Assembly: GCA_017609995.1 (NCBI GenBank) | Contig: JAFCCX010000001.1 | Location: 1-31,006, forward strand | Source of the DNA: Candidatus Pacearchaeota archaeon | Lineage (GTDB): Archaea; Nanobdellota; Nanobdellia; UBA10117; JABICX01 | Reading direction: 5' to 3' | DNA length: 31,006 nucleotides | Shown here: positions 2,528 to 11,553 of the stretch, piece after piece | How positions within the stretch are numbered: the stretch's first letter is position 1 | Layout of the letters: every line of letters begins with the position of its first letter | Program-made: the position numbers and the translations under genes | The notes under the pieces: model-generated | Told to the model about the DNA's origin: nothing | The model's database searches: none | The model's input: the letters and a program-made list of their open reading frames with translations, nothing else

Positions 2528-2644
2528 GCCCCTGTGGTGTAGTCCGGTTAATCATACCAGCCTCTCAAGCTGGTGACTCGAGTTCAAAGCGAGCTTCGCT
2601 CGGTTTACTACGAACGAAGTTTGGAGAAAATCTCGGCGGGGGCA
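2528..2644 (+). tRNA. tRNA-Glu(CUC) with a 42-nt non-canonical T-loop intron (about 2589-2630, position 59/60)
   Basis: GCCCCTG/CGGGGGC acceptor, CCAGC-CTCTCAA-GCTGG anticodon arm, TCGAG/CTCGG T-stem. Removing 2589-2630 restores the T-loop TTCAAAT. Confidence 0.92.
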
Positions 2645-2649
2645 TACAA

Positions 2650-2841
2650 TTATATACACCGTGTAGAATTATCAAATTTTTTACTTATGAAAGAAGGGTC
2701 ATCATCTGGAATGATTTCTAAGGCAATATCGCCATCATCACCATCATCTTCAACAGCTAGAATTATTTTTACCTTTTCAGCAAGCTCTTTAACTAGCTTA
2801 TCTTCCACTCTTTTCCAATTAATATTCATTTTTTTAGGCAT
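2650..2841 (-). CDS. Small hypothetical protein (63 aa, MPKKMNINW...)
   Basis: 3' part of the track ORF 2650-2952. ATG 2841 lies 25.5 nt from the centre of TTATAA (2864-2869). Confidence 0.6.
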   Translation of the reverse strand: MPKKMNINWKRVEDKLVKELAEKVKIILAVEDDGDDGDIALEIIPDDDPSFISKKFDNSTRCI

Positions 2842-2863
2842 TAGGACTGGTAGATAGGAACGC

Positions 2864-7078: not shown

Positions 7079-8877
7079 CTGACGTATTAATTGACGGATC
7101 ATTAGTAGGAACTGTTTCAGATGGTAAAACGTTTGTACAAGATCTTATCACTTCAAGACGAGCTGGAAAAATATCTGCACAAGTTAATATTCTATACAAT
7201 GAAAAAGAAGAAAATGTAAGTATTGATTTCGGAAGAAATAGAATTCGAAGACCACTAATTGTTGTTAAGAATGGAACTTCTCTTTTGACACCTGAACTTA
7301 TAAAAGATTTGAAAGATAAAAAAATAAAATGGTTTGATCTTATAAAAAGGGGTGTTATTGAATATCTTGATGCATTAGAAGAAGAGAGTACATTAGTGGC
7401 ATTAAAGGAAGAAGATATAACAAACGAACATACACATCTTGAAATCAATCCAATTTCAATTTTTAGTGTAAATGTTTCTTTAGTTCCATATCCAAATTAC
7501 AATCAGAGTTCTCGACTTGCAAGAGGTCAGAAGAATCAGAAGCAAGGTGCAGGAATTTACGCACTTAATTTCTTAAACAGATTAGATACAAATATGAACT
7601 TACTTCATTATCCACAAACACCAATGGTTCGAAGTTTCACACAAGATATTTTTGGTGATTCTTTAGTTGGTGGACAGAATATTGTAATTGCTGTCTTAAA
7701 CTATGGTGGTTATAATATGGAAGACGCAATTGTAATTAATCGAGCATCAATTGATAGAGGTCTTTTCAGGTCAACTCATTATCGACCATATACAACTGAG
7801 AAGCTAAGATATGCTGGTGGACAGGTAGATGAAATTGGAATTCCACCAAAAGACACACAAAGTTATACACTTGAAGAGGATTACAGATTCTTAGGTGAAG
7901 GTGGTCTAATTTATCCTGAAGTTGATGTTACTGGCGGAGATGTTTTAATTGGTAAAACTTCACCTCCAAGATTCTTAAGCCATTTAGAATCATTTAGTAT
8001 GACTGCAAACATTAGAAAAGACACATCTATTAGAGTAAAATATGGTGAAAAAGGAACTGTATCAAAGGTTTTCTTAACTGAAAGTGGAGAAGGTAACCCA
8101 CTTGTTCGAGTTGAGGTTAGAGAAAACAGACTTCCAGAAGTTGGAGATAAGTTTGCATCACGACATGGTCAGAAAGGAATTATTGGTATGATTGCAAATC
8201 CAGAGGATGTTCCATTCACAGCATCAGGAATTCAACCAGATATTATATTCTCACCATTTGGTATGAGACGAATGACTGTTTCTCAGATTCTTGAAACACT
8301 TGGTGGAAAAGTTGGAGCAATGGCTGGAAGATTTGTTGATGGAAGCGGATTCCAAAGTGAAGATGTTGATAATTTAAGAACAGAATTACTTGACTTAGGT
8401 TTTAGAGAAGATGGAACTGAAACACTTTATGATGGAAGAACTGGAAGACTTTACAATGCAAGAATCTTTGTTGGTAATACTTTCTATATGAGATTAAAAT
8501 ATCAAGTTACAGATAAACTTCAAGCAAGAGCTCGTGGAAGAGTTGCACTTCTTACAAGACAACCTACTGCTGGTAAGGCAATGGAGGGTGGTCTGAGATT
8601 CGGAGAGATGGAGAAAGAAACTCTTGTAGGTCATGGAGCATCATTGTTAATGAAAGAAAGATTTGATTCAGATAAGACAGTTACTTATGTTTGTGAAAGA
8701 TGTGGTGATATTGCTGTTAGAGATCACTACAAAAATAAACTTACTTGTTTGAGTTGTGGAGATAAAGCAAAAGCATCTCCAATTGAAGTTTCTTACGCTT
8801 TCAAATTATTCCTTGATGAACTTAAGAGTATGGGAATACGTCCAAGATTAATACTAAGGGAGAAATACAAATCATGA
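7075..8877 (+). CDS. rpoB1: RNA polymerase subunit Rpo2C (B')
   Basis: GDKFASRHGQKG, LLTRQPTAG, GGLRFGEMEK and the C-terminal Zn site CERC...CLSC. Confidence 0.97.
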   Translation: MTDVLIDGSLVGTVSDGKTFVQDLITSRRAGKISAQVNILYNEKEENVSIDFGRNRIRRPLIVVKNGTSLLTPELIKDLKDKKIKWFDLIKRGVIEYLDALEEESTLVALKEEDITNEHTHLEINPISIFSVNVSLVPYPNYNQSSRLARGQKNQKQGAGIYALNFLNRLDTNMNLLHYPQTPMVRSFTQDIFGDSLVGGQNIVIAVLNYGGYNMEDAIVINRASIDRGLFRSTHYRPYTTEKLRYAGGQVDEIGIPPKDTQSYTLEEDYRFLGEGGLIYPEVDVTGGDVLIGKTSPPRFLSHLESFSMTANIRKDTSIRVKYGEKGTVSKVFLTESGEGNPLVRVEVRENRLPEVGDKFASRHGQKGIIGMIANPEDVPFTASGIQPDIIFSPFGMRRMTVSQILETLGGKVGAMAGRFVDGSGFQSEDVDNLRTELLDLGFREDGTETLYDGRTGRLYNARIFVGNTFYMRLKYQVTDKLQARARGRVALLTRQPTAGKAMEGGLRFGEMEKETLVGHGASLLMKERFDSDKTVTYVCERCGDIAVRDHYKNKLTCLSCGDKAKASPIEVSYAFKLFLDELKSMGIRPRLILREKYKS

Positions 8878-11456
8878 GAGAAGAACATATTGTAAAGAAG
8901 ATTGATAAGATTGCATTTGGAATTGTTTCACCTAGTCTTATTAAGAAAATGGGCGTAGTTAATGTAGTTACTCCTGAAATTTATGATGCAGATGGTTATC
9001 CAGTTAAGAAAGGTTTAATGGATCCTGGAATGGGTGTTATTGATCCAGGACTTAGATGTAAAACTTGTGGTGGTCGTCTTAAAAACTGTCAAGGTCACTT
9101 TGGTTTCATAACTTTATCAAAACCTGTTCTTCACGCACTTTATGCTGATAAAGTTTACAATTTCCTAAGAGGTTTCTGTAAAGAATGTGGAAGAATTCTT
9201 ATGACTCAAGATAAAATTAAAGATTGGTTAGCAAAAATCGATCAGGCAAAGAGAGAATATGATATAGATAAATTACATTCACTAATTAGTTCAGTTATAA
9301 CTTCAATTAAGAATGCAAAGAAATGTCCACATTGCGGATACAAAAAAGAAAAAATAACTTTTGTTAAACCAACATCTTTCAATGAGGGAGATGACAGAGT
9401 CTGGCCAAATGAAATAAGAGAAAGATTTGAAAAGATTCCAGATGATGATATTAGATTACTTGGGCTTGACCCTGCAGTTGCAAGACCAGAATGGATGGTT
9501 TTAACTGTACTTTTAGTTCCACCAATTACAATCAGACCATCGATTACATTAGAATCAGGTGAACGTTCAGAAGATGATTTAACTCACAAGCTTTCAGATA
9601 TTGTAAGAGTTAATCAAAGACTATTGGAGAATATCAATGCTGGAGCACCAGAAATTATTGTAGAAGATCTTTGGGACTTACTTCAATATCATATTACAAC
9701 ATATTTCAATAACAAGATTTCACAGATTCCACCAGCAAGACATAGAACAAAGAGACCACTTAAGACACTTGCACAAAGACTTAGTGGTAAAGAAGGACGA
9801 TTTAGATATAACTTGGCTGGTAAGAGAGTAAACTTCTGTGCACGTTCAGTTATTTCACCAGATCCATATATTGATATTAATGAAGTTGGTGTTCCAAAAC
9901 GAACAGCAACAGAACTTACAATTCCATAAAGAGTAAATGAATGGAATATAAAAATACTTACAAAATTTATTAAAAACGGTGATAAATATCCAGGTGCAAA
10001 CTATGTAATCACTGCTGATGGAAAGAGAAAGAAAATTACTACAGAAACATTACCATCAATTTTAGAAGAACTAGCTCCGGGATGGGTTATTGAAAGACAC
10101 TTGTTAGATGGAGATATTATTGTATTTAACAGACAACCATCTTTACATCGATTATCTATGATGGGACATAGAGTAAAACTTGTTCCAGGAAAAACATTGA
10201 GAATCAACCCAATTGTTTGTCTTCCATATAATGCAGACTTTGATGGTGACGAGATGAATTTACACTTACCACAGACAGAAGAAGCAAGATCAGAAGCAAA
10301 CAATCTGCTAATATTAAAGAATCAAATTATTACACCAAGATATGGTTTGAGTATTATTGGAGCAATTCAAGATATTCTTCTTGGTTGCTATTACTTAACA
10401 AAAGATATGTACTTAACACAAGAAGATGTTTCAGATTTAGCATTAGAAGTTAATTATGATAAAGAACTTCCAAAGCCAGATAAGAGAGAAGGTGGCAAAC
10501 CACTTTGGCACGGAAGACAAATTTTCAGTATGCTTTTACCAAAAGATCTAAACTTTATACGAAGTGGAAAGGTTTGGAAAAATGGAAAAGTTTCAAAAGG
10601 AGATGTTGTATTTAAGAATGGTCAACTAATTGATGGAATTATGGATAAGAAATTTATTGGTCCCGAGGGCGGACTTCTAATTCACAAACTTTACCAACAT
10701 TATGGTGTAGATGTAACTTCAGAATTTATTAATAACTTAAACAGACTTGGTTTAGCAATTAGTAGAAAGATTGCATATAGCATGTCATTCTATGATTTAG
10801 ATATTCCTAATAAACAAAAGAATGAGATTAAACAAATCTTAAAAGATACTGAAGAACAAGCACAGAAAATTATTCAACAATATTTGAATGATAAAATTAT
10901 TCCAATGCCTGGGCAGACAAAGAAAGAAACTTTTGAAGGAAAAATAATGCAGACATTAAGTAAGGCAAGAGATTCAACAGGTAATGTTGTTGAACAAGTT
11001 ATCAAAGAAGATTCAACTCTTGTAAATTCTGCACGAGCAGGTGCAGGAGATAAGATATTGAATATTTCACTTATGTCTGGTTTTGCAGGACAGCAAGCAC
11101 TTAGAGGAAACAGAATTGATATTGGTTATAATGATAGAACACTACCTCATTTTAAGAAGAAAGATTTAAGTCCAAGAGCAAGAGGATTTATTTCAAGAGG
11201 TTACGCACATGGAATTGATCCAATTGAATTATTTTTCAATGCAATTGTAGGTCGGGACTCATTAATGGATACTGCAATGAGAACTCCAAAATCAGGTTAC
11301 ATGCAGCGAAGATTAATTAATGCTCTACAAGATCTTAAATCAGATTATGATGGAACAATTAGAGATTCAGGTCGAATGATTGTTCAGTTTAAATATGGCG
11401 GAGATAATATTGACGTTTCAAAGAGTGATGGAGGCACAATAGATACTGATTTGTAA
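8874..11456 (+). CDS. rpoA1: RNA polymerase subunit Rpo1N (A'), one reading frame interrupted by an in-frame TAA at 9927-9929
   Basis: The track ORFs 8874-9929 and 10101-11456 are in the same frame. The intervening codons read (TIP)*RVNEWNI...YPGANYV...ERHLLDGD, which is continuous Rpo1N. Catalytic NADFDGDEMN is in the second part. Confidence 0.93.
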
Positions 11457-11553
11457 TCAACCAAATTATTACACAATTTGTTGGCTTTTCGCTGTTAGCG
11501 AGAACCTGACCAAATTGGGTGTTGATTCGAGCGGGAGATACTAAGGCGAAAAA

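Follow-up and report, generated by a model that had tools for sequence, protein, structure and literature searches.

Two tRNA genes interrupted at the same position of the T-loop, in the same stretch of DNA, raise the question of whether their introns were delivered by a common mobile element. The stretch concerned, referred to below as the window, comprises 31,006 nt and constitutes contig C43 of a metagenome-assembled genome (MAG; 532 kb, 34% G+C, 71% complete), which is labelled G000 here and derives from a member of a Woesearchaeota-type order of the DPANN archaea. The genes are those for tRNA-Glu(CTC) and tRNA-Asp(GTC). A first-pass annotation of the window had suggested that both introns, as well as the spacer between rpoA1 and rpoA2, were seeded by a short mobile repeat of the repetitive extragenic palindromic (REP) type. 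The analyses described below point to a different answer, which is considered probable: that the Glu intron is a copy of a mobile intron family, that the Asp intron is separate and has a probable promoter within it, and that the motifs shared by the introns and the spacer are the result of chance or constraint. The features on which the first part of the argument depends are as follows.

2528-2644, + strand: tRNA-Glu(CTC) gene (5′ exon 2528-2588, intron 2589-2630, 3′ exon 2631-2644).
2589-2630, + strand: 42-nt intron of tRNA-Glu, at T-loop position 59/60; assigned by its sequence to a family of two-hairpin introns of approximately 40 nt.
2590-2594 (CGAGC, a), 2598-2602 (GCTCG, a′), 2611-2615 (CGAAC, b) and 2619-2623 (GTTTG, b′), + strand: arms of the Glu intron.
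2625-2628, + strand: H′ of the Glu intron (AGAA), pairing with the T-loop TTCA at 2583-2586 in three of four bp.
5119-5268, + strand: tRNA-Asp(GTC) gene (5′ exon 5119-5176, intron 5177-5254, 3′ exon 5255-5268).
5177-5254, + strand: 78-nt intron of tRNA-Asp, at T-loop position 59/60; outside the Glu-type family and orthologous to the tRNA-Asp introns (60-94 nt) of G001-G004.

In-silico excision of 2589-2630 and of 5177-5254 leaves canonical cloverleaves for Glu(CTC) and Asp(GTC), with 7-nt T-loops (TTCAAAT and TTCGAGT, respectively). The same two splices were recovered exactly in a blind scan of the whole genome, in which every pair of sites resembling a bulge-helix-bulge (BHB) motif in G000 was removed in silico (2.47 million candidates) and the products were rescanned with ARAGORN. 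In unspliced form, the genes are poorly recognized by ARAGORN and Rfam: tRNA-Asp gives a poor, forced match, and tRNA-Glu is barely seen, with only a partial Rfam match. Besides Glu and Asp, the blind scan added in G000 only Tyr, Ser(TGA), Cys(GCA), with an intron in the D-arm, and one doubtful tRNA. The junctions of the Asp intron form a strict hBHBh′ motif, consisting of the T-stem, the pairing of TTCG (5171-5174) with CGAA (5249-5252), the bulges AG|C and AA|T, and an intron-side helix of GU/AC plus 7 bp. BHB geometry places the insertion point at 59/60 in both genes, while the Glu sequence by itself also permits 56/57 to 58/59.

The precursors fold into a BHB made up of the T-stem, a 4-bp helix in which T-loop nt 54-57 pair with the 3′ end of the intron, two 3-nt bulges and an intron helix. 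This structure would be cut by the single α-type EndA of G000, and the exons rejoined by the RtcB ligase, which is encoded at C83:1824-3122. The sole EndA match in the genome (G000:C7:202-825, L043, minus strand) is a 207-aa protein of the α-type that is closest to the Nanoarchaeum equitans α subunit and to Methanocaldococcus jannaschii EndA. It carries a Lys-rich N-terminal extension of approximately 30 residues, and a loop of its C-terminal domain is six residues shorter than in the N. equitans α subunit. A single EndA (207-251 aa) was likewise found in four of five intron-rich relatives; in the fifth, G017, there is a second, partial match, located where a contig ends. Among the non-canonical intron sites already known is position 59/60, and for ARMAN-2 cleavage there has been obtained in vitro (PMC3239211). 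Since clean cloverleaves result from excision and since EndA and RtcB are both encoded, the two inserts are taken to be real archaeal BHB tRNA introns of the ordinary mechanism; the fold is read directly from the sequence, and splicing is deduced from it. It may be added that tRNA-Glu begins 40 nt past tRNA-Arg(TCG) (window 2415-2644), lacks a TATA box of its own and is probably co-transcribed with it.

The first lead to the nature of the Glu intron came from a BLAST search of relatives with pre-tRNA-Glu, which matched a stretch spanning the intron in the genome G002. The match proved to be a 40-nt T-loop intron of tRNA-Ala(CGC), a gene that has the G3-U70 pair and whose D-loop contains a further intron. 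A family was then uncovered with pattern searches and with two covariance models, one of the T-arm together with the intron (model R1) and one of the intron only (model R2), in 39 genomes of the order and in a wider sample of 151 genomes of the class, approximately 130 of which belong to other orders (individual genomes are G-numbered here). The family consensus is A-CGAAC-nnA-GTTCG-TTTTAAG-CGAAC-nTT-GTTCG-ATGTAAA, with a length of 39-45 nt, and its members are always situated between TTCRAA and T60. Its four arms can form either two tandem 5-bp hairpins or one long hairpin; each fold is approximately 92% paired, and pair counts do not separate the two. The arm pairings range overall from 92 to 99%; for the outer helix, which the BHB requires, the value is 97-99%, and compensatory changes are present. 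In the alignments, both the arms and the loop are conserved. The Glu intron of the window scores 72.6 bits with R1 and 42.3 bits (E = 6.5e-7) with R2, and, with filters off, R2 matches nothing else in the window below E = 0.24. These scores identify it as a member of the family.

Could introns at 59/60 resemble one another simply by convergence, given that any intron at this site pairs with TTCR and forms a helix? The BHB does indeed constrain the outer helix and the 3′ end of the intron (YGAA/UGUA plus AA). Conservation, however, also extends to features that are free of this constraint, namely the loop (TTTTAAG), the second hairpin and a length between 39 and 45 nt, and some pairs of introns are 90-98% identical. 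Furthermore, other 59/60 introns in the same genomes are quite different (those of tRNA-Asp, of tRNA-Glu in G005, 64 nt, and one of 60 nt in G013). Convergence is, therefore, barely credible as an explanation.

The distribution of the family is broad within the order. Full-length R1 matches to T-arm plus intron were obtained in 23 of the 39 genomes (E ≤ 0.1), and R2 gave 35 forward-strand matches in 13 of them, with up to six per genome. Every one of these 35 lies inside an R1 T-arm match, at T-loop 59/60, in at least 14 tRNA species. R2 gave no match in the approximately 130 genomes of other orders, and the family was found in none of the 11 genomes of f5, one taxonomic family of the order. 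One member, in tRNA-Trp of G037, is enlarged to 94 nt. The signature CGAACGAAGTT occurs in a single copy in G000, and there is no repeat family in that genome. A scan of the whole of GTDB for an exact pattern of the cassette returned two genomes of the order (three loci) and three apparently unrelated matches, but the pattern was narrow and the result says little about the range of the family. Two of the unrelated matches represent a two-copy repeat in a single record and the third, in a Fimbriimonadales record, is probably due to chance. The repeat belongs to an 'uncultured bacterium' (SRR26215674_binner13_Refined_32; L069 3451-3493 and L071 4026-4068), where both copies lie outside tRNAs, end in the hairpin GGCGAAC-GAA-GTTCGCC and are preceded by GTTCAAA. 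A search with a 21-nt pattern and three mismatches was also tried, and was as noisy as its reversed control.

The hosts of the cassette include tRNAs for Leu (TAA, GAG, CAA), Trp, Glu (CTC, TTC), Lys (CTT, TTT), Ala (CGC, GGC), Pro (TGG), Ser (CGA), Phe, Met and Thr. The nearest relative of a given intron is usually found in a different tRNA, and the introns are not grouped by host. The intron of tRNA-Pro in G002 and that of tRNA-Phe in G005 are 95% identical, and the introns of a putative tRNA-Thr in G008 and of tRNA-Leu(CAA) in G023 are 93% identical. The closest pair resides in two neighbouring genes of G036, tRNA-Ala(GGC) and tRNA-Met(CAT) (L123, G036:C12, 846-905 and 1065-1124, minus strand), whose 43-nt T-loop introns are one base apart (98%); the T-stems and exons of these two genes differ, and each contains a second intron. 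The presence of the cassette is also patchy among orthologous tRNAs. Glu(CTC) is free of introns in G004, G009, G018, G058 and G060, has a different, 64-nt T-loop intron in G005 and an intron at the canonical site in G003; conversely, Ala(GGC) and Met(CAT) have no intron in G000 and carry the cassette in the G036 orthologues. The Glu intron of G000 is approximately 70% identical to its nearest relatives, and is an older, diverged member of the family.

This pattern suggests that the Glu-type cassette has spread among many tRNA genes of the order, always into T-loop 59/60. The first-pass annotation had proposed site-specific gain or transfer of introns between tRNAs with a common T-arm target; for the Glu intron, the idea of transfer to a fixed site is upheld by the family, but for the Asp intron and the spacer, neither of which is matched by R2, it is not. 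Nor is the T-stem the target, since the T-stems of the hosts vary freely. The restriction to a single site may instead follow from the exon partner, which is the near-universal T-loop, so that the cassette would be spliceable in any tRNA; an intron of the anticodon loop, by contrast, would have to fit its own host. Candidate routes of copying are recombination or gene conversion via the GTTCRAA and ATCC flanks, or a route at the level of RNA. Of the arms, GTTCG has the sequence of the T-loop core (G53-G57) and CGAAC that of its complement, and TTCGAA is a palindrome in its own right; it may be speculated that the cassette originated when the T-loop was copied through a hairpin or by template switching.

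A history without recent movement must also be weighed, in which the cassette was present in many ancestral tRNAs of the order and was subsequently lost in some and homogenized in others by gene conversion (concerted evolution). Certain hosts recur across taxonomic families, i.e. Ser(CGA), Pro(TGG), Glu(TTC), Trp and Leu(GAG), and the 98%-identical pair resides in adjacent genes, where conversion would be easy. The patchy presence among orthologous tRNAs of close relatives, the near-identical introns in different tRNAs of different genomes (the 95 and 93% pairs) and the absence from all 11 f5 genomes are, in contrast, poorly accommodated by such a history, which would in any event still require an initial spread between tRNAs in the ancestor. 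It is regarded as unlikely, although it retains some plausibility, and spread of the cassette between tRNAs is preferred.

What, then, of the motifs that drew attention to the two introns and the spacer? The observations reported in the first-pass annotation are accurate as such. The Glu and Asp genes have the same T-stems (TCGAG/CTCGG), the same insertion site and the same 3′ junction (GAAAA|TCTCGGC), with introns of 42 and 78 nt; AACGAAG is present in both introns (2613-2619 and 5193-5199), and the 8-mer TTCGAGCG occurs in the tRNA-Asp gene (5171-5178) and in the spacer (11526-11533). The spacer is described by a single line.

11457-11553, + strand: rpoA1/rpoA2 intergenic spacer; contains TTCGAGCG at 11526-11533 and is unrelated to the introns.

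The significance that had been attached to this sharing does not hold. AACGAAG has 74 copies in G000, as compared with approximately 63 expected, and a 7-mer or longer common to two introns of such sizes arises by chance with P = 0.05-0.08. The 8-mer is found only twice in the genome, with both copies in the window; the expectation is 0.08 per window, or approximately 1.4 per genome by scaling. The window, however, contains 152 further 8-mer matches to the two T-arm-plus-intron stretches, and the probability that a random segment of 97 nt has an 8-mer in common with these stretches is 0.16-0.18, so the copy in the spacer can be put down to a look-elsewhere effect. Both introns have the GAAAA|T junction because a BHB at 59/60 needs YGAA to pair with T54-T55-C56-R57, followed by a 2-nt bulge, and it is also present in unrelated 59/60 introns of relatives. 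The T-stems are identical because Glu and Asp tRNAs are alike in general: the 5′ exons of the two genes are 79% identical, and intron-less Glu and Asp tRNAs of relatives have NNGAG/CTCNN stems too. The spacer had been called CG-rich; its G+C content is 41%, it folds no better than shuffled sequences (z = -1.5) and no conservation was found in relatives of the same taxonomic family, where the alignment covers only the end of the rpoA1 coding sequence. With filters off and E ≤ 10, R2 has no match in the window in either the Asp intron or the spacer. The short motifs common to the two introns and the spacer are, in summary, attributable to structural constraint or chance. The frame of rpoA1 (window 8874-11456), which precedes the spacer, was listed as two open reading frames, 8874-9929 and 10101-11456.

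These results bear directly on the proposal of a REP-like DNA repeat, moved by a transposase of the HUH type or by a REP-associated tyrosine transposase (RAYT), as the source of both introns and of the motifs in the spacer. The family intron is palindromic and hairpin-rich, in the manner of REP elements or IS200-type ends, and the confinement of TTCGAGCG to two copies within the window could be viewed in the same light. Set against this, the 39 genomes contain no R2 copy outside a T-arm, i.e. no interspersed copies, the motif counts are at chance and the spacer is not conserved. Moreover, no Y1 HUH transposase (PF01797) was found in G000, G004, G007, G008 or G017, all of which carry introns (71-92% complete), and no reverse transcriptase (RVT_1) was found in the same five genomes. 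A REP-like origin is accordingly very improbable.

If it does not belong to the Glu family, the Asp intron must be accounted for separately. Searches by BLAST with the whole of pre-tRNA-Asp found no homologue of the intron, and the orthologous introns were reached only via the 3′ exon and synteny with rpoH, which opens the RNA polymerase operon. In G001-G004, which belong to the same taxonomic family as G000, tRNA-Asp likewise has an intron at 59/60 (60-94 nt); in G002 and G004 there is an extra intron at the canonical site. The order tRNA-Asp to rpoH is kept in all four, with the RNA polymerase operon directly after the tRNA. The five Asp introns (G000-G004) are alignable only at their BHB ends and in one block, SAAAAnWTTATAAR. 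Two further features are needed here.

5199-5216, + strand: motif GCGAAAATATTATAAACG, resembling a transcription factor B recognition element (BRE) and TATA box, in the loop of the hairpin CGAAGCG/CGCTTCG of the Asp intron; it points to rpoH.
5296-5577, + strand: rpoH (Rpo5), at the head of the RNA polymerase operon; the frame opens at 5284 and the start at 5296 is uncertain.

It was asked whether the Asp intron might nevertheless belong to the Glu family as a member that has diverged strongly or been expanded, for example a cassette into which an insert with the TATA block has been placed. The common site at 59/60 and the growth of a family member to 94 nt in tRNA-Trp of G037 provide some grounds for this, as does AACGAAG, which overlaps the family signature. 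In opposition are the silence of R2 on the Asp intron, the lack of AACGAAG in the four orthologous Asp introns and the probability, given above, that a 7-mer is shared by chance. Membership is, on these data, quite unlikely, and the Asp intron is interpreted from the alignments as separate from the Glu family and vertically inherited within its taxonomic family.

The conserved block lies 40 nt before the 3′ exon of tRNA-Asp. It was scored with a position weight matrix (PWM) derived from the tRNA promoters of G000 itself (13 training sites, anchored automatically; three were misplaced, and the scores are therefore rough). The promoter consensus is AAAsnTTTWTAAA; at 10 of the training sites, its end is situated 22-25 nt upstream of the mature tRNA. 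The block in the G000 intron scores 7.2 bits, which places it in the top 0.08% of genome positions, and those in the four orthologous introns score 9.1, 9.2, 11.9 and 13.6 (loci L137, L138, L006 and L007). These values are at the level of real upstream promoters in the same loci, while 33 other T-loop introns, used as a control, score no more than 3.1. The translation of rpoH contains the conserved motif KHxLVPxH, and the gap between tRNA-Asp and rpoH is only about 15-30 nt, depending on the start codon chosen. Because this gap is too short for a promoter, a promoter within the intron is proposed. The motif, its position and its conservation suggest, on balance, that the promoter of the RNA polymerase operon most likely lies in the Asp intron, in which case transcription would be expected to begin near 5238. 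The alternative would be co-transcription of the operon from the tRNA-Asp promoter, whose TATA box ends 23 nt before 5119.

Several points weigh against the interpretation developed here, and they concern each of its parts. As regards splicing, the BHB of the Glu intron is relaxed, in that only three of the four bp of its central helix (TTCA/AGAA) are formed and there is one extra unpaired G; a U-U mismatch at T55 is found in most family members; and classical α4 enzymes have been reported to require strict motifs (PMC3239211). Over 24 introns, the T-stem is paired to 100%, the central helix to 76% and the intron helix to 97%. As regards the family, all of the genomes are incomplete MAGs (52-93% complete), so that copy counts and absences are lower bounds, and several host genes have further introns, with the identities of some such hosts being uncertain. 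As regards the Asp intron, TATA-like words are common at 34% G+C, and the five introns are kin rather than independent samples; in addition, the overlap of AACGAAG with the family signature CGAACGAAG leaves room for a remote relationship. A fuller proposal, in which the cassette is actively mobile, and portable by itself through its use of the universal T-loop, and in which the Asp intron has at the same time been co-opted to house the RNA polymerase operon promoter, is put forward tentatively, as somewhat short of an even chance.

The closest parallel to the Glu-type family is found in the Thermoproteales, in which families of transposed tRNA introns have been described (Fujishima et al. 2010, Mol Biol Evol 27:2233, as summarized in PMC4033280 and PMC3239211). 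In both cases, short BHB introns of the EndA type resemble one another in sequence and interrupt different tRNA species in related genomes, their presence among orthologues is patchy, and no mobilizing enzyme is known. They differ in that the hosts here belong to a DPANN order with a single short α-type EndA instead of an (αβ)2 enzyme, in that all detected copies are at 59/60, whereas the introns of the Thermoproteales as a whole are at various positions, and in that the cassette is a conserved palindrome of palindromes with the universal T-loop as its exon partner. The site-strict family thus resembles, and may represent a new variation on, the 'intron transposition' of the Thermoproteales.

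Other comparisons concern the site and the enzyme. In ARMAN-2, pre-tRNA-Cys(GCA) has a 13-nt hBH intron at 59/60 and tRNA-Pro(GGG) has introns at 53/54 and 59/60 (PMC3239211). The T-loop position, the DPANN host and the relaxed or strict BHB are as observed here, but the ARMAN-2 introns were described in single genes and with a three-unit ε2 EndA, as opposed to a sequence family and a sole 207-aa α-type EndA. DPANN genomes with an α4-type EndA bearing an L3 loop, one Woesearchaeota genome among them, have been reported to contain many disrupted tRNA genes, with some tRNAs unpredicted (Kaneta et al. 2018, PMC5829648). The unpredicted tRNAs fit the hidden, multi-intron tRNAs found here, and neither an intron sequence family nor a T-loop hot spot appears to be described in that paper. 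The TATA block of the Asp intron recalls the split tRNA genes of N. equitans, in which a promoter precedes the 3′ part and the parts are joined via a BHB-type structure (Randau et al. 2005, as summarized in PMC4033280). This is a resemblance only: tRNA-Asp is contiguous, cis-splicing is the simplest assumption and the internal promoter is proposed for the rpoH operon, not for a tRNA half. In the literature, no publication was found on a T-loop intron family in these archaea.

How archaeal tRNA genes come by their introns is not settled; for Asgard tRNAs, a preprint of 2026 tested several routes by which introns may have arrived, and found no general one (doi 10.64898/2026.10.13.758758). The family described here is short, near-invariant and confined to one site, with 95-98% identical copies in different tRNAs, such that donor and recipient can be compared base by base. 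Should the cassette indeed be mobile, it would provide a sequence-defined system for studying how BHB introns move, the candidates being an RNA route that involves EndA and RtcB and a DNA route in which hairpins drive the copying of the palindromic T-loop core (GTTCG/CGAAC). The idea that the cassette docks onto the T-loop is testable in vitro with one enzyme. If the TATA block of the Asp intron works as a promoter, a tRNA intron would have a role at the DNA level in expression of the RNA polymerase operon, which would constitute a new reason for its retention. Hidden introns of this kind also account in part for the low number of tRNAs, only about 20, that standard tools detect in genomes of this sort.

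Finally, three of the other tRNA genes encountered in G000 may be noted. The doubtful one (G000:C2:6-150) is an AT-rich, tRNA-like gene, 'Ile(AAT)', with an encoded CCA end, a 59-nt insert after nt 13 and a partial Rfam tRNA match of 24.7 bits. In the gene for tRNA-Cys(GCA) (G000:C5:4715-4825), which is truncated where the contig ends, an intron of 41 nt interrupts the D-arm region near nt 10/11 and has no match to the T-loop family. The tRNA-Tyr(GTA) gene, in the window at 4793-4900, has an ordinary 35-nt intron at the canonical site in the anticodon loop.

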